DNA of 14,446 nt from the UHGV virus genome UHGV-1642993; one strand, 5' to 3'. Each line of letters begins with the position of its first letter. Positions within the stretch are counted from its first letter, which is position 1. The translations under genes and the position numbers were made by a program. This DNA is from a virus. Positions 1-13,062 of the stretch are shown here, in pieces. Below the pieces are notes generated by a model. It did not search any database and was not told the origin of the DNA. It worked only from the letters and a program-made list of their open reading frames with translations.

Positions 1-45
1 GGTGCTCTGCTCCCGTGGCGGGTTACTCTGCCTGCCTGACCAGCT

Positions 46-171
46 TCACTTCGTCAATACGGTTCTCACTGCACGCTTACGCTCATCAAACTGATCAAAG
101 AAGTTACCCTCTGCCGCTGGAGTTTCCGGTTGAGGGATGGCTTCATCAAATTGGTCGAAGAAATTCGCCAT
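46..171 (-). CDS. Small hypothetical protein (41 aa) with two perfect copies of the octapeptide NFFDQFDE; below the ORF-track size cutoff
   Basis: ATG at 171-169 sits 5 nt after a canonical SD (minus-strand TAAGGAGGGAGTA-ATG) that overlaps the stop of the upstream gene; TGA stop at 48-46. Translation: MANFFDQFDEAIPQPETPAAEGNFFDQFDERKRAVRTVLTK. The two repeat copies differ at 5 synonymous third positions and no nonsynonymous ones. Confidence 0.45.
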   Translation of the reverse strand: MANFFDQFDEAIPQPETPAAEGNFFDQFDERKRAVRTVLTK

Positions 172-181
172 TACTCCCTCC

Positions 182-1489
182 TTATGGGAGATAGCCGTAT
201 TTAGCTTTGAACTGAGACGCTAATGCCGGGTTTGCTTTCAGTGCCTGGATAGCTGCTTCCGGTGCTTGCCCTGTTGTGCCTGCCTTCTGCTGATCCTTCT
301 GTGATTTCCTTTCTGACACATATGTATCGTATCCCTGCGAGCTGTAGCCCATAGATTCAGCTTCGCGGGCCGCCACCTTTTGCAGTACAGAATATTGGCT
401 GCGAATTTCTCCAAGCTGCTTTTTCACCACGTCAGCTGGTTGTGTAACATCGAGGCGGGCGATCAGGTTTTCGAGCTTGCTTCCTTCTGCGTTCGAAAGT
501 GCTCCCAAGCCTCTGAGCATCTGAACGTTCTGAACGAAAGCGCCAGATTTCAGTTCCTCAATAGCGTTTCTGTTTTCCAGCCCTTCAGCAGAGGTCATGG
601 CGTCAGGGTAGCGACCTTCAACCCGACCGACGCCTGCCAGGTCTCCCTTGTTCATCAGAGAGTCAATCTTCTCGATCCCCCTCTCGCCAGTGATTAGCGC
701 TTCGTTATAGCCGTTATTTCCCTCGAGCCACTTTCTGGCCTGCCCCATTCGTGCTCCGGTTGCTGGCTTACCGGTTAAAGGGTCAATTCCTGTAGAGGCG
801 ATTTGAGAGTTTAACGACAGGGTGTCCATGTCCTGAACGTCGCCGTATTTTTTAAGCGCTGCCTGTGACTGCCTGTATACGTATTTATCGTGATTCAGAC
901 GAGCCATCTGAGCGCCATATGAGAGCTGCTGCCCCTGTCGCGTGGTGGCGTTCTGCATGTCAGCCTGGCGGGCGTCCTCCTTAAGTTCAGCTTCTTTCTG
1001 CTGCGCATCTACCTGCTTCTCAATAGGCATCGTTGCGTACATTGACGCTTTCAACAGGGAGCCGAACTGCTGCGGATCGTTATGAGCCATTTGAATGGCT
1101 TCCTGCGGATCAACCCCAAAGCTCATTAGAGCAGGCTTGTTTTGTTCTATCGCGGTCTGAATCATTGCCGGGTTGCCGGTTGCAGCCGCTATAGATATTT
1201 TGTTGAGCGCCTTATTAACAAACGTAGCGTGCTCGGCATCCTGAATGCCTATCTCTTTCTGGATGAGATCTGCAAACTCAGGATGCTGCATGCGCAGCGC
1301 TGGTAAATCCTCCGGCTTGGCATTCTGCAATGCTGTATATGCGGCCTGTTGCCGCTCCTGCTGCTGTGTCGCTGCATCCATCTCCTGAGAGGTTTGACGA
1401 ATTCCCTGAATTGCCCGCCCAGCAGTCAACCCCTGAAGCAACGCCCTGCCAGTTGATGCAGAGTAATCAATAGGTTCGACAACCATCAT
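182..1489 (-). CDS. Internal virion / DNA-ejection protein, P22 gp20-like by position and size (435 aa)
   Basis: Six-frame ORF with SD (GAGGTGA) before ATG-ATG at 1489; Q/A-rich, predicted helical; third gene after the tail needle, as in P22-like gene order 26-14-7-20-16. Assignment is by synteny and composition, not by recalled sequence identity. Confidence 0.6.
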   Translation of the reverse strand: MMVVEPIDYSASTGRALLQGLTAGRAIQGIRQTSQEMDAATQQQERQQAAYTALQNAKPEDLPALRMQHPEFADLIQKEIGIQDAEHATFVNKALNKISIAAATGNPAMIQTAIEQNKPALMSFGVDPQEAIQMAHNDPQQFGSLLKASMYATMPIEKQVDAQQKEAELKEDARQADMQNATTRQGQQLSYGAQMARLNHDKYVYRQSQAALKKYGDVQDMDTLSLNSQIASTGIDPLTGKPATGARMGQARKWLEGNNGYNEALITGERGIEKIDSLMNKGDLAGVGRVEGRYPDAMTSAEGLENRNAIEELKSGAFVQNVQMLRGLGALSNAEGSKLENLIARLDVTQPADVVKKQLGEIRSQYSVLQKVAAREAESMGYSSQGYDTYVSERKSQKDQQKAGTTGQAPEAAIQALKANPALASQFKAKYGYLP

Positions 1490-1502
1490 TCACCTCTAAT
1501 AT

Positions 1503-2099
1503 TTAGAAGAAGCCAGAGGCCACGCCACCAATTTGCATCAGCGAGTTGAAGCCAGATTGCGCCTTACCTGCTTTTGACGCGCCAATCTGGGCCATGTTAT
1601 TGCCATAGGCACTGGAGTAATCTCCAGCGGCGGCGTTGTTAGCACCTGCAGCTGACAGGCCGACGTTAGTCAGACCTAAAAGTTGCCCATACATATTATT
1701 CTGCTGATTGGTCATCATGTTCAGGTAGTTCTGTCCGAGTTGCGGCGCGATTGAACCGAGTAAATTACCCGTTGCCGTAGAGCCGAGACCTCCTGTTGCC
1801 TGTGCGGAGCGTAGAATGCTATTGCGAGCCTGATCTTCCTGCATCCGGTATTCTGGAGATGAAAAGTAATTAGACAAAGATAGATTTCTGTCGATTGGCT
1901 GACCAGCAATCCCCTGCAATCCCTTTAATCCAGAAAGACCAGCATTCAGGAATGGCTCATTTGTTTTTTTCTGATCCTGATAGATATTCCACGCCATTTG
2001 GTTGGAATCTCTCGCCGCACCAACCTGAGCGTCTGCGGCTTTATTGGCCCCGGTAATGCCGCCAACGACAGAATTTAGTGCTTTGCCGACAAAGCTCAT
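1503..2099 (-). CDS. Internal virion / DNA-ejection protein, P22 gp7-like by position (198 aa, Gly/Asn/Ala/Gln-rich)
   Basis: ORF start overlaps the upstream gene stop by 4 nt (2096-2099); low-complexity G/N/A/Q-rich sequence typical of ejection proteins; syntenic position. Confidence 0.55.
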   Translation of the reverse strand: MSFVGKALNSVVGGITGANKAADAQVGAARDSNQMAWNIYQDQKKTNEPFLNAGLSGLKGLQGIAGQPIDRNLSLSNYFSSPEYRMQEDQARNSILRSAQATGGLGSTATGNLLGSIAPQLGQNYLNMMTNQQNNMYGQLLGLTNVGLSAAGANNAAAGDYSSAYGNNMAQIGASKAGKAQSGFNSLMQIGGVASGFF

Positions 2100-2464
2100 A
2101 CGTACCTCACCATTTTAATTACGTTTGTTACGGTTCCATCGAGACGAGCGCCATCAAATTCGCATTCGTGCTCGAATCCCATTTTTCTTGCCAGGTTAGA
2201 GACGCGCCTGTATTGCTCTTCGATAAGCGCGTGAATTTCACGGTTACCGATTAATGCCAGCACATTAGAAACAGCATCCCGGCATCGGTGGCGTTCACCC
2301 GGTTTCATTGCCATGTGCAGGTCTACGTGGTCACCAAAATCCATACAGACGAAGACGCCGACGCCGTTCCAGAGCAGATGGTCACCTTCAACGAGGGGAA
2401 ACGATGGCACACCCCACAGGCGCATTAATCCCTGCCCGGTGAGAGCATCAATTTTTGTGAGCAT
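2096..2464 (-). CDS. Hypothetical virion-assembly protein in the gene-14 position (122 aa)
   Basis: ORF lies directly after the tail-needle gene (2-nt gap) and is coupled to the next gene by a 4-nt overlap; Cys/His-containing, no family recognised by eye. Confidence 0.5.
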   Translation of the reverse strand: MLTKIDALTGQGLMRLWGVPSFPLVEGDHLLWNGVGVFVCMDFGDHVDLHMAMKPGERHRCRDAVSNVLALIGNREIHALIEEQYRRVSNLARKMGFEHECEFDGARLDGTVTNVIKMVRYV

Positions 2465-2466
2465 GA

Positions 2467-3312
2467 TTACTGTTCCGCGATAATTTTGATGGTCGTGGCA
2501 GTGAATGCCGCGCCATTAGCCTTGATTGTTAACGTGCTGCCATTTGTTGCAAGGAAGCCGTTTTTATCAACGCTGAAGAATGTTGAAAGAAGGATATTGC
2601 TGGTAGTCGTTGCGGCATTTCTACTGTCTACCAACGTATCAGGAACCGCGCCAGAGAAGGTTAACTGCATTGATCGGTTAGTTGTTCCACCTGGGAATGT
2701 CCCAACGAGAGAGAGTTTAAAATTTAAAGTCTTGTTCTCGTTGTATACGATCATCTTGTCTGATGTAGTATTGAAGAATGGAGCAAGCGTTCCTGATGTA
2801 GGGGTTAACGCCTTAAGCATCGTAATCAGGTTTGTTGCGGTGGTAGGAATAACCTGTGATATTCCAGTGTAAATAACCTCCGATTTCTTACGTGTGGTGG
2901 CATACTCCAGAGCATCAATACGTGTTTCGTGATCAGCAACCTGTGTTTCAAGGCTAGTTACCCGTGTATCAAGCGATGATATGTTGCTCTCATTCTGGGT
3001 AATCCTAATCTCATGATCGGCTATCGAAACTTCAGCAGCACTAATGCGAGTTTCATGGTCAGCCAGTGTTACTTCTGCTGATGATATACGCTGCTCGTGA
3101 TCGGCAAGAGTGACATCCTGTTCATCGTTCTTAACCTGAGCGTCGTATGCCCCCTGACCAGCATCGTTGGCTTTATTGGCTACGTTGGTGAAGTCAAGCG
3201 CCTGAGACAGAATGTACTGCTGATAGGTTGGAGACAGGCCAATCGGTAGCGTTGATGCGCTAATCCTGATGGCGCTTACGCGAACCGGTGTTTTTAGTGA
3301 GTCATCAGCCAT
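2467..3312 (-). CDS. Tail needle protein (P22 gp26 family) with trimeric coiled-coil repeats and a C-terminal knob-like domain (281 aa)
   Basis: N-terminus (MADDSLKTPV..., KANDAGQGAYDAQVKNDEQDV) matches my recollection of P22 gp26; five tandem 14-residue repeats (VTLADHEQRISSAE-like) follow; a ~130-residue Thr/Asn-rich C-terminal extension is absent from the 233-aa P22 needle and resembles the knob of Sf6-type needles. Start shares 1 nt with the gp10-like stop. Confidence 0.8.
   Translation of the reverse strand: MADDSLKTPVRVSAIRISASTLPIGLSPTYQQYILSQALDFTNVANKANDAGQGAYDAQVKNDEQDVTLADHEQRISSAEVTLADHETRISAAEVSIADHEIRITQNESNISSLDTRVTSLETQVADHETRIDALEYATTRKKSEVIYTGISQVIPTTATNLITMLKALTPTSGTLAPFFNTTSDKMIVYNENKTLNFKLSLVGTFPGGTTNRSMQLTFSGAVPDTLVDSRNAATTTSNILLSTFFSVDKNGFLATNGSTLTIKANGAAFTATTIKIIAEQ
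2905..3114 (-). repeat. Five tandem 42-bp (14-codon) repeats encoding the coiled-coil shaft of the tail needle
   Basis: Protein repeats VTLADHEQRISSAE / VTLADHETRISAAE / VSIADHEIRITQNE / SNISSLDTRVTSLE / TQVADHETRIDALE; matching DNA periodicity (…cgtgatcagc…, …catgatcggc…, …catggtcagc…, …cgtgatcggc…). Confidence 0.6.
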
Positions 3313-4730
3313 TACTCAATCCTCACCGATAAACCGGAAAGCGTCACGGGCGACTTTGTTATCACCCTGAACTTAAAGGCGATGTTCTTTCTGACACGCC
3401 CTACATTTCGCCATATTGCCCGCTGGTCGTATCGGAATGGCGCATTCCATGGAATGAGTTGCTCACGACCAAAGTTGATACCATCCGTCATGGCAGAGAT
3501 AAACATTCGGTCTGCGGTCTGCGCTACTCCTGTTGCTGATTCAAGCTCAAGGTCAAACAACAATGCGTTATCGGCTTTGATAAGTGGCGTATACAACAGG
3601 TGCTCTTGTTGTTTTCCGTATTGACTACTTATTGCCGTATTCAGTTGCCCGGTCACCGCTTCCAGTTTGTCGCCGCAGGTTATCTGATTTCCTTCGAACA
3701 TAAAGTCGATGCCGCGATAAACATCATCATAAAGTCCGGTTTTCAGCACTGACCACTGCGGTCCGTTCTGGCTTGATGATGCGTCATATACGAGCACGTG
3801 ACGTGGAAGATGGATAATCAGCAATTCATGTGAGTCGAAGCGCAAAGGCTCCATAACTGCTGTTGCCAGTTCATCAGCCGTGTACTCACGCAGTGTCTTT
3901 TCAATCAGCGCGGTAGATATTGGCTTTGCTTCACCGGAATCAACGATACAGACAGAAGGTGCACCCGTTGCCTGGTTGGTAATAATTGCGAACGAGCCAA
4001 GGAATGCGCATTTGCAGAACATGCCCGCAATGCCTTTTGGTACCATGTACGCCGGGTTAGCAACGTAGATTGCGCCAGTCTGACCGTCATTTCCCGTCAG
4101 TGAGAAGTACTCGATGGTGGTCGTGCCAAAACAGACGATGAAATCACGCCACGCAGCAATTCCGACAATGCCATCTGGTTGGGACTCTGCCCGCATCATT
4201 GCGCCATAGCGATCCGGGTGTGACTCATCCTGAAGGTCGGAGATAAACCACGAGTCAGTGCCTGATTTCGTCCAGGCATAGTTACCCCGTGACTGACAAA
4301 TGTCACCTGCACTGCCTAATTCATATTGCAGATATCCGCTATTAGCAGGCCAGTTTGTTACCGTTTTAGTTGTGCCGTCATAGAGGTACTGAATCACCTG
4401 ACCGCCGACAACAACAGTCTGACTTGTCCGACTATGCGCCATCGGTACGCGACCGATTCCAGATACGCTGCCGACCTCAGCAGAGCCGCGATACAACTTG
4501 CCACCGCAGACGCGATATACAGCATTCTGAGAGGTGTTGTACTGCGCACCGCGCGATACTCCCGCCACATCTCCACGCTTCTCTATGCCCGGCATAGAGC
4601 GAAGATATCCAGACGCATTCATCACTTCTTTCGCTACTGCCAGCATATTGACTGGAAGCATGTCGATGTAATCAGCGTCTTTCGCGCTTTTACCAAGTCC
4701 ACGCATCAGTGGGATTTGCTGGGTTGGCAT
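3312..4730 (-). CDS. Tail hub / head-completion protein, P22 gp10 homolog (472 aa)
   Basis: Same length as P22 gp10 and extensive recalled similarity (NAVYRVCGGKLY, DSWFI.DL.DESHPDRY, HELLIIHLPRHVLVYDASSSQNGPQW, VITKSPVTLSG); syntenic between the gp4-like and needle genes. Confidence 0.9.
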   Translation of the reverse strand: MPTQQIPLMRGLGKSAKDADYIDMLPVNMLAVAKEVMNASGYLRSMPGIEKRGDVAGVSRGAQYNTSQNAVYRVCGGKLYRGSAEVGSVSGIGRVPMAHSRTSQTVVVGGQVIQYLYDGTTKTVTNWPANSGYLQYELGSAGDICQSRGNYAWTKSGTDSWFISDLQDESHPDRYGAMMRAESQPDGIVGIAAWRDFIVCFGTTTIEYFSLTGNDGQTGAIYVANPAYMVPKGIAGMFCKCAFLGSFAIITNQATGAPSVCIVDSGEAKPISTALIEKTLREYTADELATAVMEPLRFDSHELLIIHLPRHVLVYDASSSQNGPQWSVLKTGLYDDVYRGIDFMFEGNQITCGDKLEAVTGQLNTAISSQYGKQQEHLLYTPLIKADNALLFDLELESATGVAQTADRMFISAMTDGINFGREQLIPWNAPFRYDQRAIWRNVGRVRKNIAFKFRVITKSPVTLSGLSVRIE

Positions 4731-4738
4731 AAATTACC

Positions 4739-5200
4739 TCATGTTGCCGGGTCGTCTTTCTCGATGTAAAAACGGTTCCATGTGAATGCTGATTTGTTAC
4801 CTGAACCTCGAGGCATGTCGTTACGGCGTTCGAGTGGCGGAACGGTGATTAGAGCGATGCAGATTGTCTGATATGCGTCGTCAGCTGCGGTTAACAGGCC
4901 ATCAGGAGCAGGTCGCAGGTTGTCCATGCAGATTTGAACGGCGAGTTTCAGTGATACACCGTCGTTAGCCCACGCTGGAATGCCGGAATCATCATCTGGA
5001 TGTGGCATAACTCCATTTGCTGAGTCTGCAAACTGGTATCCAATTTCAATGCCTTTAACCTGCCACGCAGCCATCATGTCTTCGAGGTCGTTAATAGCAT
5101 CCTCTATAGACTGCGGCTCTGCATCGGTAAGCGTAGCTTTGGAATAAAGACCGGCTTTTCTCAGCGCTTTGAGGACTAAATCACCCTTTGTCTTCGCCAT
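4739..5200 (-). CDS. Tail accessory / head-completion protein, P22 gp4 homolog (153 aa)
   Basis: N-terminus KTKGDLVLKALRK...ATLTD.EPQS..DA..DLE.MMA.W and a C-terminal MPRGSGN motif resemble P22 gp4 as recalled; SD (AAAGGCGGA) before the ATG. Confidence 0.8.
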   Translation of the reverse strand: MAKTKGDLVLKALRKAGLYSKATLTDAEPQSIEDAINDLEDMMAAWQVKGIEIGYQFADSANGVMPHPDDDSGIPAWANDGVSLKLAVQICMDNLRPAPDGLLTAADDAYQTICIALITVPPLERRNDMPRGSGNKSAFTWNRFYIEKDDPAT

Positions 5201-5405
5201 TTTGTTCCGCCTTTGGTTTTGGCCCTGGCTTCTTCTTTGCTGCTGGCTCTGGCTCTGGCTCTGGCAGGACAGTATCGTCTGGATGCTTCACCCAGCCTTT
5301 ATCCAGATGCTCATCCACATCATCCTCATCAACAATGATGTAATCCAGCGAGTGAGGGCCGCAGGTTATCATCGAGCCAAGCTTATAAAGCATTATTTGA
5401 GACAT
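5181..5405 (-). CDS. Small acidic hypothetical protein with PEPEPEP and a Lys/Pro-rich tail (74 aa)
   Basis: ATG at 5405 preceded by GGGAG; sits directly after the coat-gene terminator hairpin; 3' end overlaps the gp4-like start by 20 nt. No recognisable domain. Confidence 0.5.
   Translation of the reverse strand: MSQIMLYKLGSMITCGPHSLDYIIVDEDDVDEHLDKGWVKHPDDTVLPEPEPEPAAKKKPGPKPKAEQNGEDKG
5243..5266. repeat. Hexanucleotide tandem repeat (CTGGCT)x3 plus one variant unit, in frame within the 74-aa ORF
   Basis: Plus strand ctggct-ctggct-ctggct-ctggca; encodes PEPEPEPA on the minus strand. Confidence 0.7.
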
Positions 5406-5416
5406 TGCGTTCTCCC

Positions 5417-5441
5417 AAAAAAGAAGGGGCCGAAGCCCCTT
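5417..5441 (-). terminator. Intrinsic terminator / attenuator directly after the coat gene
   Basis: Minus-strand transcript: AAGGGGC-UUCG-GCCCCUU (7-bp GC-rich stem, UUCG tetraloop) followed by CUUUUUU; begins 3 nt after the coat TAA stop. Confidence 0.65.
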
Positions 5442-5444
5442 AGA

Positions 5445-6704
5445 TTACTGGTTAGCCAGTACCAGGCCGGTAAACTCTGGAACCAATACACTTGCGCCAG
5501 CCAGCGTGGTGAATCGCGTCCACGTCTTACCTGCTTTGGCATCGAACTGGTAAGCCATGATGATGGTCGCCCCCTGCTCGGTAGTTGCCGTCATAACCTG
5601 CGGGCCCTGCCCGGTCGGGAATGCCAGCTTGCCGTACATCAGCTCTACAGAGCCCTCAGCAAAGAAGATGTTGGAAGCCGCAGCCTTCTTGTTGAGAATG
5701 GTGATCGCCGCGTTATTCGCCGGATTGGCGGTAACGTTCTGGTAAGGAATAGACGGCGCATCAGCGTTGTTTGGTGGCAGAATTTTCGGGCTGATGGTAA
5801 CGGTGGTGCCATTTACCGCCAGGACGCGGAATACCTGCGACTGGCCTGTATCCACCTTCTTGATCATGTGGACACTATTAACGCCTGCGATAGTGAATGC
5901 ATCACCAACAGCCAGCACGCCAGCAGTAGACACGGTGATGTCGCCCTGACGGTTATCAGTAGGTGCGCCGTTGGAGTCCATTGCGGTAACTTTATGCGCT
6001 ACTGCGCCACCAAGAGTTACGGCGGTGGCAGAACCTGCCTTCATCGCGCCAGCATAATCAACACGGAAGCTGTCGAAGGATGCCACAGGTGGGATCTGAG
6101 CTTTCTCATACGCCGTCAGCGTTGCGCCAACTGCATATGCGCGAGAGCCAAGCTCTTTAGCCAGGTCTTTGTAGTTGAACGGGTTGTAGAACGCTTTGCG
6201 CTGCCCACCCTGCGGCACACCAATAGAGAGCATCATTGCGTCAATGCCTGCAGATGCGTTCCAGAGGTCTTCGCCGAGAGTATTGCCGGTTGATGCCGAA
6301 CCAATGGTGACCATGTTGGTAGCGCGGGCGGCCACCTCATCGACGATCAGGTTATCAACCCACGCTGCCAGCTGACGACCCGCCGCTTTACCAGCTTGCT
6401 CCTTATGCCATGGATCGCGCATTTCTTTTGCGTCCAGCTCGTAGATAACGTTTTCTGGCTCGCGGAAACGCACAGGTACCTGACGCTGAACGAGTGAGTT
6501 TGCAGTTGCTGCGGTCAGATCTAGGCCGCTAACGGTTTTCAGATGGTAACCTTGAGGGCGATAAACTACGTCGCCTGCGCGTTGCATTTCAGTGTCGCCC
6601 GGGCGGAACTTGCTGCACTCACGGGATACTACGTTTGATGCCTCGAATCCATCAATGACGTTTTCAAATAGGATTTCAAGGTCTTTAGTTAACTGATTAG
6701 GCAT
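5445..6704 (-). CDS. Major capsid (coat) protein, P22-like phage of non-P22 sequence type (419 aa)
   Basis: Large ORF directly after the scaffold gene with SD (CGGAGC) and an A-rich leader, followed by a terminator; size fits Sf6/CUS-3-type coat proteins. Not similar to the P22 coat sequence as I recall it, so the call rests on synteny. Confidence 0.75.
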   Translation of the reverse strand: MPNQLTKDLEILFENVIDGFEASNVVSRECSKFRPGDTEMQRAGDVVYRPQGYHLKTVSGLDLTAATANSLVQRQVPVRFREPENVIYELDAKEMRDPWHKEQAGKAAGRQLAAWVDNLIVDEVAARATNMVTIGSASTGNTLGEDLWNASAGIDAMMLSIGVPQGGQRKAFYNPFNYKDLAKELGSRAYAVGATLTAYEKAQIPPVASFDSFRVDYAGAMKAGSATAVTLGGAVAHKVTAMDSNGAPTDNRQGDITVSTAGVLAVGDAFTIAGVNSVHMIKKVDTGQSQVFRVLAVNGTTVTISPKILPPNNADAPSIPYQNVTANPANNAAITILNKKAAASNIFFAEGSVELMYGKLAFPTGQGPQVMTATTEQGATIIMAYQFDAKAGKTWTRFTTLAGASVLVPEFTGLVLANQ

Positions 6705-6724
6705 ACTTTTTTAGCTCCGATGGA

Positions 6725-7621
6725 TTATTTTTTAGCTTTATTCTTCGCCGCTCGGTATGCGGTGTAATCACCGGTGGCGCGCGCTTTTTCGAGAAGTTTG
6801 TCGAGATTATTAATTGCAGCGCCATTGCTCCCTTTAACCTCAGGAGTGGTAGCGGCTGTTGTTTTTGCTTTAGGCATGATTCTGGCCTTTGATTCGATAC
6901 GTTCCAGCAGACGACCAATTGCTACGGGGTTGGTAGCTTCTGCCAGTTGCTTGCGCAGTTCAGCGTTGCGACCAAGCGCCAGAACAACGATTTCCGGCTT
7001 CTCTGACTCAAACAGGATCGAGTTTTGTGTCTCGATGGGGATTTCCTCGAGTACGGCCTGCTCAGCTTCCTGATAGCCAGGAACTTTGAGAGCCTTAACA
7101 CGTTGCTGATATTTGGATAATCGCTGTTGATAGGCAGCCTGAAGCTCCTGCTCCTTCTGCTTGCGAGCCATCTCCTGTTGCTGGTACTTGCCGTTATCCT
7201 CTGCCCACTTAGCCATGCGTTGCTGGTAGATTTCTTCATCGAAACCGATGTCCTCATCGTCCAGTTTTGGCATTCGCGGTGGTTGAGTGATTACCGGCTG
7301 CTGCTCGACGGGTTTCTGAGACTGACGCATCAGCTCTTTCAGCTCGCGGTCTTTCTCTTTAATCGTCTTGCGCAGGTGTTTTACCAGTCCATGCTCTGCG
7401 CTATCTTCGCTGGTTGGCGAATCCAGCTTTTCGTCACCAAAGTAGAATTCCTGTTCTGATTCGTCGTCATCAGTTTCAGTAGCTTCCTCTGCATCATTGC
7501 CAGAGGACTCACTGCCATCTTCTGTTTCGACTTCTTCAGCCAGTTCGACATCATCAGGAATCTGCTCTGACGCGTCGGTTTCGATTTCAACTTCTGGTGT
7601 GTTTTCTGCCATCTGTTCCAT
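6725..7621 (-). CDS. Scaffolding protein (298 aa)
   Basis: Between portal and coat genes; strongly acidic N-terminus, central charged helical/coiled-coil region (KEKDRELKELMRQ..., QQEMARKQKEQELQAAYQQRLSKYQQRVKALK), basic C-terminal helix-turn-helix-like end (GDYTAYRAAKNKAKK) resembling the coat-binding end of P22 gp8. Confidence 0.75.
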   Translation of the reverse strand: MEQMAENTPEVEIETDASEQIPDDVELAEEVETEDGSESSGNDAEEATETDDDESEQEFYFGDEKLDSPTSEDSAEHGLVKHLRKTIKEKDRELKELMRQSQKPVEQQPVITQPPRMPKLDDEDIGFDEEIYQQRMAKWAEDNGKYQQQEMARKQKEQELQAAYQQRLSKYQQRVKALKVPGYQEAEQAVLEEIPIETQNSILFESEKPEIVVLALGRNAELRKQLAEATNPVAIGRLLERIESKARIMPKAKTTAATTPEVKGSNGAAINNLDKLLEKARATGDYTAYRAAKNKAKK

Positions 7622-7711
7622 TTGTTACCCCTGTTTACTCGATGTTCAGCCCATCGGAAGGCAATAGGGTGCCAGGCCTCATAAAGACAGCCATTGCACG
7701 TTATGGGTTAA

Positions 7712-9916
7712 TTACTGCTGTGGTTGTTGCTGAGTTGATTTTTGCAGGATGCTGCTGATGTCCATGCGCTGCGCATGGCCCTGTGCCTGACTTTTCAGGA
7801 CAAGCTCTGCATCAGCACGGGCATTATCTCCTTGCTGTTGCTGGAACTGTCCGAGCAGTTTCAGCGCCTCACGGATATCAGATTTTTGCTGGCTATCGGC
7901 AGATGCGAGGATTTTCACAACATTTGCCGCAGCAACCTGAGCATCCGTCTGTGCCTGGAATGCTTTAACCTGAATGGCTGCTTGTTCGTTCTGCGCTTTC
8001 TGCAATTCAGCCTGACCAGCAAGAAGCTGACCTTGCGCAGCAACCATAGCCGGATCTGGCTGACTGGCCTGTTGTTGTTTCGCCTGCTCAACCATCTGCT
8101 GTTCTTCTGGTGTTCTCGGCTTAATAACGCCAGACAGAAGCAACTGATTGCGGTTGTATTCTTTAAGGTCGTCCATCCCTTCGCCGTCCATATTGTCGAG
8201 AATCATCGACGATACAAGGTCATGCTTCGGCGTTCCTGGCGGGATAAGTGCCAGCATGGAAAGCAACGACTTAACCGTTGCATCACGGCGAGTAGCGAAC
8301 GACTGACCGACATCGACAGTCACTTCATAGTTACCCTGCGAAAGGTCGTTAAGCGCGATAACCTTCCCTGTCTGACGGTCAACCACTTCACCAGTCATCA
8401 GCGCCACGTCATCGCTGCCATCCTCATTAACGATGCGCATTGGCGTATCGCTGCCATAGACTTCACGAGCCATAGAAAGCCACACGACGCCAGCACGGCG
8501 CATGGATTTAGCCATGTTGTCCATGTAGATATAGGACTGCGTGTCCATCCGGTTAAAGATGCTATCAACGGTATCGGTAGCGACGTTGCTCGGCATGTTC
8601 TCAAGCTGCGACGCACCTGTAATTTGCTGAATAGCCGTTCCGGTGTACTGCAATAGCCCGGCAAGAGCAGGAGGCATTTGTGTCGGAGGTGTCCAGCCAG
8701 CAACCTGAGCCTCTGAAATGACCGTTCCGTTTTTGTCCTTCTTGCTGGTCATGGGAAGAACTGCAGGTCTTTTCTTATTCCTCTCTGCCCAGTGATTCAT
8801 TAATGGACCGGGAATGAAATCAACATCCACGATAGGAATGCCATCACCGCCAGCCTGAGTAGCATTATCTGCAATCATGGAAACCATCAGGTTCTCAAGA
8901 CGCTGTGCATCCATCGCTTTTGCTGCGTGGCCTTCGATTCGCTCCTGATTATCAACAAATGAACGACGCCCATATACCGGGATGAGAGGAATATGTTCGC
9001 CCGGAATACGCTTCGGTTCTTCCAGCCATTCAGCGCCAGACAGAAGACCGCAATAAACTCGGCGTTTCTTCACCGTTCGCTCGCCAATCAGTTCGAATGC
9101 ACCATCGGTCAGCTCGTCGACAATATCTTTGATTTGCTCTTCATCATAGATTGCCGTTTCTCCGCTGACAGGGTTACGCCATGCTGTGAGCTTCACCTTC
9201 TCTATGCGGACTTCGTAGTAGCGTCCAACATAGATGGCATCAGGCGTTGACCAGTCATATTGAGTACCAGTGTCATCACGAGAAAGACTTGCCGCGATGG
9301 AATCAGGGTATTCAGCCTCGAACGCTTTATGCGTCATGGAGAACATTTCCATAGCCCACATAGCATCAGAGCGGTCATATTGCTTGCTGTCCTGATCGAA
9401 GAAAACGCATGTCGCTGGGTCGTAAACAGGAAGAAGGCTGATGCGTCGCTGCTCGTTACTCGGATCCATTTCATCTTCGTAATCGGCACACATGCGGAAA
9501 CAACCGAATCCGCCCGTTACAGCATCATCAAATGCGTTATCACACGCTTCGCCACCGGATGTTTCCTGATAGTCAGCGCGGAATTTGCCGTTCATCTTTT
9601 CGGCTAACGCTTCCGATGCCTTATCGTCCTTAGGCCTGAATTTAACGCTGATGCGATTCTGTCGATACTCGCCAATGATGCGATCACATTCACGGGCAAT
9701 CTTATTCAGTTCAAAGCGCGGGTAATGCTCAAACCTGCCTTCATCAAATGAGTAACCAGCGTTTGTGCTGCCTTCCCACTGTGCGCCGGACACCCGGACG
9801 AAACGTTGAGCCTCAATAATCTGCTCACGCATATCCTTCGTTGCTGACCAGGCATTATCAAAGTTGCACAGCACCTTGCGATGCCAGTCAGTCATCTTTC
9901 TATCATCAGCCATCAT
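7712..9916 (-). CDS. Portal protein (P22 gp1 family, diverged; about 734 aa)
   Basis: Motifs shared with the P22 portal as recalled (KRRRVY, GEHIP..PV.G, PRTPEEQQ, DPAMV.AQGQLLAGQAEL.KAQN helical barrel); the ATG at 9916-9914 overlaps the terminase TGA stop (ATGA) and is preceded by GGAG; the track's TTG at 9928 is less likely. Confidence 0.9.
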   Translation of the reverse strand: MMADDRKMTDWHRKVLCNFDNAWSATKDMREQIIEAQRFVRVSGAQWEGSTNAGYSFDEGRFEHYPRFELNKIARECDRIIGEYRQNRISVKFRPKDDKASEALAEKMNGKFRADYQETSGGEACDNAFDDAVTGGFGCFRMCADYEDEMDPSNEQRRISLLPVYDPATCVFFDQDSKQYDRSDAMWAMEMFSMTHKAFEAEYPDSIAASLSRDDTGTQYDWSTPDAIYVGRYYEVRIEKVKLTAWRNPVSGETAIYDEEQIKDIVDELTDGAFELIGERTVKKRRVYCGLLSGAEWLEEPKRIPGEHIPLIPVYGRRSFVDNQERIEGHAAKAMDAQRLENLMVSMIADNATQAGGDGIPIVDVDFIPGPLMNHWAERNKKRPAVLPMTSKKDKNGTVISEAQVAGWTPPTQMPPALAGLLQYTGTAIQQITGASQLENMPSNVATDTVDSIFNRMDTQSYIYMDNMAKSMRRAGVVWLSMAREVYGSDTPMRIVNEDGSDDVALMTGEVVDRQTGKVIALNDLSQGNYEVTVDVGQSFATRRDATVKSLLSMLALIPPGTPKHDLVSSMILDNMDGEGMDDLKEYNRNQLLLSGVIKPRTPEEQQMVEQAKQQQASQPDPAMVAAQGQLLAGQAELQKAQNEQAAIQVKAFQAQTDAQVAAANVVKILASADSQQKSDIREALKLLGQFQQQQGDNARADAELVLKSQAQGHAQRMDISSILQKSTQQQPQQ

Positions 9917-11409
9917 CCAACTCCGCAAGGTATGTTGTAGCTTGAGTAATCAATCTCTTTAGGATCTTTGATGTCTCGCATCTGTATTGCAAAACGCCTC
10001 ATCATGTAGCCATAGCGAACAGCAGAAAGGATGTCGTCATTTAGCTTGACGATCTTCCCGTTCTCATCGCGGTGATACAGACGAAACTCTTCAAAGAATG
10101 GCTCGCAGGTGTTAAATACCTTGAAACGACCGTCGAGCATCATGTCGCGTATCTCTGCTATCCCGGGTTCGACCGCATTACCTCCATCAGGCCATGTTGC
10201 ATGATCTGGCAACATGTCGAACCCAGCTTCGGCGTATTGTTCCTTGAGCTGAGCGCCGCCTCCCTTTTCGTGCTGATGCCCGTCATGAGGCCAAGCCGTA
10301 GGGGTGTTTTTGCTCCATGCTTTAACAGCACTCCATGCCTCTGTCGCCTTCTTCTGTTTGGCCTTCCAGACGCGAGAAAGATAAATCACGTCCTCGTCTT
10401 TATCCCACCAAAGCTGGATATGTGCCTGTGGGTGATCCCATCCGAAGTCCATTGCATTGATGACGTAGAAGTGATCAGGACACTCGAACGGCTGACACTT
10501 AATCGTCTCTTCCGGTATCTGGAAGATTCGACCGCTACCCATCGTAGGAATACCGCGAGCACGCGCCTCTCTCTCGTGCTCGGGATAGGATGCGATGATT
10601 TGCTCTTTCTGCTCGTCGGTATAGTGCTCAGCATCATAGATGGTCATGTTGACCACTTTCTGCGACTTGCTGGGATTCTTCAGGAACTTGGTAACAACGT
10701 CAGACATCCCCATCAGCGGGGTAAACGTCAGAATTGAGAATTGCCCGTATTTGTTGGTACGGGTAAGACCTTCGCCATAAATGCTGTATGGTGGCTCTTC
10801 GTCAAACCACACGCCGTGGATTGTGTCACCCTGCCAGCGAGCACGGCCTTGAGAGTATGGTTTGAAGTAGCAGATTGAAATGCCATCTTCAACGCCATCA
10901 GCCGTGTGATGCTTAACCAGAAGATGATCAACAAGGTTCGGAAAGAAAGGAGACTTCTTCCAGCTAATGATGTCCTCTTTCGGTATGGAACCGTAGCCAG
11001 GCTCGTCATTCTCTTCGATACGACCGCACAGGATGCGTTGAGTCGTTTTGGTTACAGTCTCGTTTGTCTCGCCACCAATCCAAAAGACAACAGGCTCATA
11101 GAAACGCTTACCTTTCCACTCACCGCCATATTTACCATCAGCAGGATAGCCTTTTGTGCCCGGATAACGCCCTGTAAGGTGAAACGCGACTTCAGCAGCA
11201 CCAGTAAATGACTTACCAAGCTGGTTACCAGCCATAAAACATCGCTCTGGATAGTCATGTCCGGCGTCGATGAACTCACGCTGTTTGCTGTATGGCGTAA
11301 ATTCATATAGCAGGTGTGTGTTCCGGTAGTTCTCTTCTTCTTCGAGTAGCTCGAGCAATTCGATTTGCTCTTCGTCGCTCAGGTTATCAAGAATCGCGTC
11401 CAGTTCCAC
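9913..11409 (-). CDS. terL: Terminase large subunit, P22 gp2-type (498 aa)
   Basis: N-terminus [37 protein letters not shown] and Walker A segment AGNQLGKS match P22 gp2 as recalled; GTG start at 11409 with AAGGAG upstream; overlaps terS by 23 nt. Confidence 0.95.
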
Positions 11410-11881
11410 GGTTGAATAGCTCCTTGATACGAGAGCGCCGCTTATCGCGATCTCCCTTATCAGGTGTCACGTCTTCAACTTGCGACTGCTCTTTGAGGCC
11501 CAAATCACGGGCGATGATGTTAGCGTTGAGAAGGTCAGCGGCTGCGCCAGAGAATTTCTGATCGTAGATGATGTCTTCCGCTCGTGATGTGACGTCAGAA
11601 AAACCTTCCATTGACCGGAAGGTTCCCCATGTTTGCCTGGTGATATCAAGGAAGGTACACAATCCTGAAATAGTCATGGCTCGCATCTTAGGGACATTAG
11701 CCTTAATTATTTCTCCCTGATATGAAAATACCTTGCCCTCCCATAGCGGGTTATCATCAGCCCACTCGAAGTATTCACAACAAGCAGCCCACAGCGCCTC
11801 AGGCGATTCGAATTTAGGGTTTCGCCCATGACTACTGCGGGCCTCCCAAAATCGGTTGCCCTTTGGTGCTGCCATATCCAT
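11387..11881 (-). CDS. terS: Terminase small subunit, P22 gp3-type (162-164 aa)
   Basis: [38 protein letters not shown]... and C-terminal [56 protein letters not shown] match P22 gp3 as recalled; two candidate ATGs (11881, 11875). Confidence 0.9.
11587..11608 (-). other. Candidate pac (packaging initiation) site inside terS, diverged from the P22 pac sequence
   Basis: Minus-strand GAAGGTTTTTCTGACGTCACAT (encoding EGFSDVTS) occupies the position where P22 gene 3 carries its pac site (recalled as GAAGATTTATCTGAAGTCGTTA, encoding EDLSEVV); 14 of 22 positions match. Contains the palindrome TGACGTCA. Confidence 0.4.
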
Positions 11882-12256: not shown

Positions 12257-12514
12257 CTACTTCGTTTTTGCTTCCGCTCTTTTACGGCGGCGCTCTTCTT
12301 TCTTCTCGGCGTTTGCCATGTCCATGAATGCCTGCATGATCGAGTTCCTCATCATGTAACTGACAAAGTGATGATTGACGCAGCCGTTGAGACGGAGTTG
12401 CTCGCCAAACTGATCAACCGAGGCCAGCACTTGCATCATGTCCTTCTCACCTTTCATGAACTCAGAGAAGTCGCGCCCCGCTCTGGAAGCGCATTCAATG
12501 ACGCGATTATTCAT
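12257..12514 (-). CDS. Small hypothetical protein (85 aa) with a basic C-terminal tail (KKEERRRKRAEAKTK)
   Basis: ATG at 12514 overlaps the upstream TGA stop (ATGA coupling); no recognisable domain. Confidence 0.45.
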   Translation of the reverse strand: MNNRVIECASRAGRDFSEFMKGEKDMMQVLASVDQFGEQLRLNGCVNHHFVSYMMRNSIMQAFMDMANAEKKEERRRKRAEAKTK

Positions 12515-13062
12515 CCTGGAAGCCCTGGGATCGTAATCTGCAGCTGGTTAGCCAGGGTATTAATCTCAGCGACCAATACAGGCTTCGTATAACGCCATGC
12601 AGCAAGTCCTTGTCCGCAGAAGCTCGCCATGTCCTTCTTCTGGTCAAACTCATGGCACTTCATGTTGAGCTGCGCACTTAAGCTGTTGCGATGCTGAAGC
12701 TCTCCGGTGAAGTAGTCATCGAGGACCTTATATGCCGCGTACTTGAAACCGGGGTTTAACCAGGCAGCATAATCGTAAGCAACAAACTTCCCGCCATAGG
12801 TTCCGCCGTGTACGCCGCGGGCAGTAAAAACCACAGATTCGTGGTTTTTCTCCAGCTCGGCCAGGAACTCTTTGGTCTGCTTGTTTCGCAGATAGTGGTA
12901 AGGCGATTCAGCATCACTTTTGCCACTGGCTTTCCACATATCGGTGAGGCAGATCATGCCGTCTTCTCCGACACGGATTGGTTGATTGAAGAGGGTTAAT
13001 GATTTCATTTCGCTGATACCTTTTGGTGGTTGAGCCTGTTCTCGTAGATATGGGCAGCCCAA
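12511..13062 (-). CDS. KilA-N-like domain protein (183 aa from TTG at 13062; 165 aa from the internal ATG at 13008)
   Basis: N-terminal segment IRVGEDGMICLTDMWKASGKSD....YLRNKQTKEFLAEL fits the KilA-N DNA-binding pattern as I recall it; first ORF after the lysis-cassette terminator. Confidence 0.5.
   Translation of the reverse strand: MGCPYLREQAQPPKGISEMKSLTLFNQPIRVGEDGMICLTDMWKASGKSDAESPYHYLRNKQTKEFLAELEKNHESVVFTARGVHGGTYGGKFVAYDYAAWLNPGFKYAAYKVLDDYFTGELQHRNSLSAQLNMKCHEFDQKKDMASFCGQGLAAWRYTKPVLVAEINTLANQLQITIPGLPG

Follow-up and report, generated by a model that had tools for sequence, protein, structure and literature searches.

A 41-codon reading frame behind gene 20 of a P22-like Escherichia coli prophage is almost certainly the stub of a gene 16 cut by an IS66-family insertion

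Directly behind the gene for a gp20-like DNA-ejection protein, the virus genome UHGV-1642993 carries an open reading frame of only 41 codons, with a strong Shine–Dalgarno sequence and a perfectly repeated octapeptide in its product. A preliminary description, made from the sequence alone, took it for an unrecognised virion or ejection-associated peptide encoded between gene 20 and gene 16. Is this frame a small gene in its own right, or the remains of a larger one? The analysis reported here covers the whole stretch of 14,446 nucleotides (hereafter the window) and compares it with E. coli genomes, metagenome contigs and phage proteins. We conclude, with very little doubt, that the frame is a pseudogene stub: gene 16 of a P22-like E. 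coli prophage, interrupted by an element of the IS66 family after codon 30. The repeat that drew attention to it is nevertheless a genuine feature of intact gp16-type proteins, and it is considered in the last section together with the tail of the neighbouring gp20.

The reading frame, its repeat and its setting

The late region of a P22-like prophage makes up the window; all of its genes lie on the minus strand, in the order known from P22: holin, endolysin, Rz, terminase, portal, scaffold, coat, gp4, gp10, gp26, gp14, gp7, gp20 and the truncated gp16. Small and large terminase are both present, gp26 is the needle with its knob, the spanins are Rz-like and gp14 denotes the gene at the gp14 position. 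A regulator of the Rha-like or antirepressor type (183 aa; PHROG 129/518) is encoded at 12511–13062 on the minus strand, flanked by the lysis genes and the small terminase gene. The gp20 homologue passes the cut-off of its Pfam profile narrowly (30.7 bits against 29.7), is 53% identical to gp20 of HK620 and of CUS-3, and is the NCBI entry named 'phage DNA ejection protein [Escherichia coli]'. When positions 1–1600 were compared by megablast with 50,697 phage records, no match was found.

The features at the left end of the window are collected in Table 1. The frame starts 10 nt past the gp20 stop codon, and a 5-nt spacer, GAGTA, separates the AAGGAGG from the ATG; the same AAGGAGG is present in the two related loci that are described below, those of E. 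coli contig ABDAKN010000088 (L003) and of E. coli ET776 (L001). The two copies of NFFDQFDE differ at five of 24 nucleotides, and all five differences are synonymous changes at third positions (AAT/AAC, TTC/TTT, GAC/GAT, CAA/CAG and GAA/GAG). The codons concerned are all two-fold degenerate, so that only one in nine of their single-base changes is silent, and five silent changes out of five are therefore not expected from the neutral drift of a duplication. The pattern is explained by selection on a short linear motif, of which the intact protein has two copies. On these points the preliminary description was accurate, both in the frame with its Shine–Dalgarno sequence and spacer and in the synonymous-only repeat; its view that selection acts on the protein is supported by the five silent changes and by the recurrence of the motif on many ejection proteins. 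It was also right about the lack of a small gene here in P22: in P22, HK620, Sf101, Lumpael, phiv205-1 and JEP4 alike, gene 20 is immediately followed by gene 16 and nothing small is encoded between the two.

Searches with the product itself returned little. No Pfam or NCBIfam model matched the 41-aa product, and a phmmer search of the 41-mer against 1.84 billion representatives, for which a 7-residue motif is a poor query, gave the sequence itself and four weak matches, three of them internal to long proteins. A homologue search with the 46-aa N-terminus, in which the word prefilter is coarse for short queries, recovered the 41-aa ORF itself alone.

Table 1. Features at the gp20–gp16 boundary of the window
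Feature	Position	Strand	Remarks
Right end of IS66-family insertion sequence	1..80		Terminal inverted repeat starts GTAAGCGTGCAGTGAGAACCG (minus strand from position 80)
3' end of tnpC (12 codons and stop), GALLPWRVTLPA	1-39	plus	Equals the C-terminus of WP_001000409 TnpC
41-codon ORF and TGA	171..46	minus	Product MANFFDQFDEAIPQPETPAAEGNFFDQFDERKRAVRTVLTK
Read-through codons 31-41 (RKRAVRTVLTK) and TGA	46..81	minus	Translated IS66 inverted repeat; the first base alone is native
Predicted 8-bp target site, TGATGAGC	81..88	minus	Expected to be duplicated at the other IS end; predicted from the ET5 copy and the 8-bp duplication of the IS66 family
Native codons 1-30 of a gp16-family (P22 gene 16 type) DNA-ejection gene, MANFFDQFDEAIPQPETPAAEGNFFDQFDE	82..171	minus	DNA identity to L003
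NFFDQFDE copy 2, codons 23-30	82..105	minus	Separated by 1 nt from the IS end, which begins at position 80
NFFDQFDE copy 1, codons 3-10	142..165	minus	
Shine–Dalgarno sequence AAGGAGG of gene 16	183-177	minus	Overlaps the gp20 stop codon TAA (184-182)
Conserved gp20 C-terminal tail, APEAAIQALKANPALASQFKAKYGYLP	185..265	minus	Varies together with the NFFDQFD head encoded by the next gene
gp20-like ejection protein, 435 aa	182-1489	minus	PF16928 Inj_translocase; EIH1067226.1
gp7	1503-2099	minus	PF25688

An intact gene 16 and the end of an IS66-family element

The nature of the frame follows from a comparison with the uninterrupted locus. Contig ABDAKN010000088 of E. coli (L003; assembly GCA_020345525.1) is 99.9% identical to positions 81–11483 of the window, with six mismatches in 11.4 kb, and the identity ends exactly at position 81. 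This contig contains the exact 435-aa gp20, and the ORF that starts at the same ATG runs for at least 427 aa to the contig end; a precomputed assignment places its gene in PF26808, Phage_P22_gp16. It diverges from the window after codon 30, exactly at the IS end (GTAAGCG…). Since the ORF of L003 continues from the same ATG, the frame in the window is composed of codons 1–30 of gene 16, 11 codons derived from the IS and a stop. From codon 31 onwards the intact gene reads CAGCCAGCTCAACCG…, its remainder includes …CAGCCAGCTCAACCGCAAGAGCAG…, and residues 38–165 of the intact allele share 83.6% identity with P22 gene 16. Full-length forms of this gene have 582–583 aa (P0001, L013 and L014).

As a member of the P22 gp16 or 'DNA transfer protein' family (PF26808; PHROG 770), the stub shares the position after gene 20 in the gp7–gp20–gp16 cluster. 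Complete members are ORFs of about 580–730 aa that include the conserved body, whereas in the window codons 1–30 alone survive and the IS takes over from codon 31. A further difference lies in the N-terminal residues (about 35), which belong to another mosaic module: MANFFDQFD…NFFDQFD in the window, MKVTANGKTF… in P22 and MAKAWKDV… in HK620. That this module differs among PF26808 proteins indicates that it lies outside the conserved body. A local scan with the PF26808 profile missed even the intact homologue P0001, and the family membership of the stub is therefore based on its DNA identity to intact genes together with the precomputed PF26808 assignments.

A second relative with the same N-terminus is found in E. 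coli ET776, where a 424-aa gene occupies the same position after gp20; its megablast match to the window consists of the 3' half of gp20 and of the ORF only as far as position 84. In this prophage (L001, 2609–3300 and 4743–6235), gp7 is frameshifted, the body of the 424-aa gene at the gp16 position is unrelated to P22 gp16 and a gap of 218 nt follows it. The ET776 locus may be another decayed ejection module.

The sequence that replaces gene 16 in the window is recognizable from its matches. In a megablast of positions 1–1600 against complete E. coli genomes, positions 1 to about 100 match the ends of IS66-family elements in 444 genomes, mostly at 95% identity or more, and the sequence from position 80 downwards, GTAAGCGTGCAGTGAGAACCGTATTGACG…, is identical to such ends. 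The elements matched in E. coli carry tnpA, tnpB and tnpC, and in the window the 3' end of tnpC lies just inside the right inverted repeat, in the orientation expected for the family. A clean copy in E. coli ET5 was taken as the reference for the IS ends, the inverted repeats of a nested IS66 copy (L002) being uninformative; the ET5 copy is identical to the window over 80 nt, begins with GTAAGCG at both of its ends and is flanked by the 8-bp duplication GGTTGAGT. Members of the IS66 family produce 8-bp target-site duplications. The element at the window end thus agrees with the family in its terminal 80 nt, in the GTAAGCG start of its inverted repeat and in the orientation of the tnpC 3' end, and differs only in that a single end, 80 nt of the element, is visible. 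It also accounts for the GGGAG at 32–28, which had been proposed as the Shine–Dalgarno sequence of a gp16-like gene starting to the left of the window: this GGGAG lies inside tnpC.

The junction between gene and IS recurs outside the window. The exact 41-aa product is present on seven ENA metagenome contigs, and the six of them that were listed come from six samples and two assemblers (with k141_ and NODE_ names), all have the same IS junction and all stop 20–95 nt past the ORF. One contig is 100% identical to positions 1–10171 of the window and reaches 130 nt into the IS66 element, where it is still identical to the ET5 copy. Because the same junction occurs on independent contigs, it is real and recurrent and not a single mis-assembly, and the window includes no more than 80 nt of the IS because a repeated element interrupts short-read assemblies. 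The other end of the IS and the 3' remainder of gene 16 are absent from the window and from all matching contigs, all of which end inside the IS, and it is for this reason that we infer the 8-bp duplication and the completeness of the element at this site from the reference copy and the habits of the family. The exact junction had no match among the GTDB species-representative genomes.

On this evidence, an IS66-family element has almost certainly landed in gene 16, the gene of the third DNA-ejection or 'pilot' protein, immediately after codon 30, leaving the native Shine–Dalgarno sequence, the ATG and the first 30 codons in place, and translation would run for 11 codons into the terminal inverted repeat before meeting the TGA. 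The insertion is probably recent, as only six mismatches in 11.4 kb separate the window from the intact prophage. In P22, gene 16 is essential for DNA delivery, and virions without gp16 are non-infectious; the prophage is thus probably defective for DNA delivery and would probably be unable to make infectious particles unless gp16 were supplied in trans. With its Shine–Dalgarno sequence and ATG intact, the stub may still give rise to the 41-aa peptide during transcription of the late operon.

The preliminary description had itself allowed that the frame might be part of the ejection-protein gene, and the comparison with L003 essentially bears this out; the cause that it had in mind, a sequencing error at the TGA, is replaced by the IS66-family insertion after codon 30. 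Of its proposal of an unrecognised virion or ejection-associated peptide, the association with ejection stands and the separate small gene does not, the frame being the 5' end of a gp16-family gene. A false 'new small gene' is thereby removed in favour of an IS66-disrupted gene 16 of the known gp16 family, and the case illustrates that a truncated gene may pass for a micro-ORF when a contig breaks off within an IS.

Other readings of the stub

Three other explanations were weighed. An artefact of sequencing or assembly, whether a chimeric end of the contig or a faulty TGA in an otherwise intact gene 16, would be in keeping with the position of the junction, 80 nt from the window end, since contig ends are error-prone. 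We regard it as very unlikely. What is seen is no point error; it is a switch, placed exactly at GTAAGCG, to a stretch of 80–130 nt that is identical to the canonical IS66 end, and the same junction was assembled independently, by different assemblers, from at least six ENA samples.

It could also be supposed that the stub, although a pseudogene by origin, has had its product co-opted to act in soluble form as a decoy, sequestering the gp20 tail, or any other partner that binds the motif, of related superinfecting phages. The intact Shine–Dalgarno sequence and ATG would permit this, and viral contigs (L089, L107, L131, L150, L180 and L115) encode small proteins, secreted or membrane-bound, that have one NFFDQFD each, which suggests that free-standing copies of the motif can be functional. 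These natural small proteins are exported, however, whereas the 41-mer has no signal peptide, and its 11-residue tail is arbitrary IS sequence. The late operon is, moreover, silent in a lysogen, and the insertion, with six mismatches in 11.4 kb, looks too recent to have left time for selection. Co-option of the peptide is accordingly hardly to be expected.

The least credible reading is the one from which the question arose, a stand-alone small gene for a virion or ejection-associated peptide of 41 aa between gp20 and gp16, for which a strong Shine–Dalgarno sequence, an ATG, a repeat conserved at the protein level and the identical product called on seven metagenome contigs could be cited, but which is refuted by the empty-site comparison, the near-isogenic prophage having a long gp16 ORF from the same ATG, and which is contradicted besides by the IS66 inverted-repeat origin of the last 11 codons and the stop, by the same IS junction in all six listed contigs and by the region to its left, which is tnpC and contains no gene start. 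The relatives examined with this N-terminus (at least 55 in one set and at least 87 in another) are all large proteins. Related phages do not conserve a separately terminated ORF at this point of the gene order; in every relative with this N-terminus the frame opened by the same start is long, from 329 to more than 3000 aa, and none is of 41 aa. Disruption of gene 16 by the IS thus remains by far the best explanation of the frame.

The gp20 tail and the gp16 head

Among close gp16 homologues the N-terminal 35–60 residues are mosaic, and the MANFFDQFD…NFFDQFD type is rarer than the types of P22 and HK620. A scan of IMG/VR with the N-terminal peptide gave at least 55 loci, and an any-frame scan for NFFDQFD gave at least 111 unique ORFs. 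Among the matches listed, the motif begins within six codons of the start in 87 of the 111 ORFs, and in 75 of these 87 the first 260 residues contain at least two copies. The copies are spaced by 12–35 residues, or by about 110–190 where a domain is inserted between them, for example a lytic-transglycosylase-like domain or one marked by 'GNIDIHNRPVV'. The proteins with the N-terminal motif that were listed range from 431 to 3176 aa, have unrelated bodies and come from contigs of 36–69% GC; some match PHROG 770, 'DNA transfer protein', and most match nothing. Among species-representative genomes, prophages of Alpha-, Beta- and Gammaproteobacteria carry the module. The tandem N-[FP]-F-D-Q-F-D is thus a genuine feature of the extreme N-terminus of intact gp16-type ejection proteins.

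The gene directly upstream shows a matching feature at its other end. In 75 of 83 non-redundant loci by regular expression, and in about 80 by eye, among the matches listed, it ends in a tail of about 30 aa of the form P-x-A-A-I-x-A-L-[KR]-x-N-P-x-L-A-x-Q-F-[DK]-A-K-Y-G-(YLP or xGAAxxLG). The reverse scan, starting from QFDAKYG, gave at least 78 unique ORFs that bear this motif C-terminally, and among those listed the next gene starts with N-[FPYVL]-F-D-[QKR]-F-D in 59 of 78, the commonest head variant being NPFDQFD. Of the listed loci, 52 were new to the reverse scan; 34 of them pass the automatic test and at least 11 more do so on inspection.

Three types of junction can be distinguished in P22-like phages and prophages. 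In P22 (type A) the gp20 tail ends …GIKFTVE and the gp16 head is MKVTANGKTF; in HK620, phiv205-1 and JEP4 (type B) the corresponding sequences are …NFSSLWGD and MAKAWKDV…; and in the window and ET776 (type C) they are …KAKYGYLP and MANFFDQFD. The gp20 body with …NYNQQYNVNVG… and the gp16 body with …AEQAGRGLVNIPFDVLQGG… are each found with all three types, which argues that tail and head are exchanged as one unit straddling the gene boundary. The mosaicism of P22-like ejection proteins as such is well known (PMC10883804; PMC8954989); neither the NFFDQFD motif nor the gp20 tail that goes with it was found described in the full-text literature searched, in Pfam or in NCBIfam.

It is quite possible, and we propose it tentatively, that tail and head form a hitherto undescribed two-gene junction module, exchanged together across phages and prophages of Alpha-, Beta- and Gammaproteobacteria, through which the tunnel protein and the inner-membrane protein dock onto each other in the periplasm. 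The C-terminal motif of gp20 and the N-terminal motifs of gp16 would then be a docking pair within the trans-envelope ejection channel, as their co-variation and the analogy with T7 suggest. The genetics of P22 show that gp20 and gp16 must match: gp16 of Sf6 is assembled into P22 virions, but it functions there only if gene 20 of Sf6 is present too (PMC10883804). In T7, the N-terminal region of gp16, comprising the transglycosylase domain and a 'molecular tape' (residues 157–228), binds the C-terminal domain of gp15 within the periplasmic tunnel and stabilises it (PMC8954989). The two systems agree in that an N-terminal part of the third and largest ejection protein is paired with a C-terminal part of the second, in gene order, and in the peptidoglycan hydrolase domain that lies beside or between the motifs in many relatives. 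They differ in that no sequence similarity is detectable, a 7-residue motif is here repeated in a disordered-looking linker and the binding is suggested here by co-variation only.

Alternatively, a third partner could bind the two motifs, be it one involved in encapsidation or a host envelope protein. Short N-terminal targeting peptides are known from phage internal proteins, for example those of T4, and are common to otherwise unrelated internal or ejected virion proteins. The capsid targeting sequence of T4 is present in a single copy and is cleaved by the prohead protease, whereas the motif considered here is tandem and co-varies with the tail of the neighbouring protein. Its presence on exported small proteins as well points to a periplasmic role rather than to one in encapsidation. 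An RNA-level basis of the conserved junction, such as translational coupling, was considered and rejected, because the conservation is at the protein level and synonymous positions vary freely across contigs of 36–69% GC.

If tail and head do form such a docking pair, the small exported prophage proteins that end in NFFDQFD could act as decoys and prevent superinfecting phages from assembling their channel. The motif and its matching tail offer a concrete, mutable handle on the recognition between gp20-type and gp16-type proteins, conserved in very divergent phages, and suggest a possible route to superinfection exclusion by mimicry. The IS66 insertion point lies 1 nt past the last codon of motif copy 2 (window 81–88), so that the stub retains the whole gp16 half of the junction module and nothing else; that exactly this half was retained is probably a coincidence.

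Several further observations concern the distribution of the motif. The 730-aa gp16 of E. coli (P0084 and P0104–P0109) and the proteins of L075, L077, L085, L120 and L126 contain an inserted domain of about 100 aa (…GNIDIHNRPVVKN.DGSISTVRS…VLIPTVSDDGRIMSDDEA…), which sits between two NFFDQFD copies or after a head of the HK620 type and has no Pfam match. In Lumpael gp16 (L190, 4096–7083), MANIFDQFD is followed by an SLT domain and then by GGNVFDQFGD. In Sf101 gp16 (L189, 4060–6795) the SLT domain precedes a tandem DPNNPFAQ[LI]E, which has probably diverged from the motif, and the gp20 tail motif is degenerate in both phages. The small proteins encoded at L089 (2191–2613, minus strand), L107, L131, L150 and L180 (3005–3364, plus strand) have about 113–140 aa, contain cysteines and a signal peptide and end in …(P)NFFDQFDPP; in L180 the small gene shares its locus with that of a large protein bearing the N-terminal tandem motif. 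Multi-transmembrane proteins with a single NFFDQFD were also seen, L083 and L170 being listed alongside L115. The 189-aa protein of L115 (4564–5256, plus strand) has hydrophobic segments at both ends and, between them, the stretch PWKDVIVKPEFRALTLQQQTTARQQYFDQVVAP…AQFFSAYP together with one NFFDQFD. This stretch resembles the N-terminus of HK620-type gp16, a hint that the heads of the HK620 type and of the NFFDQFD type may be functionally related.
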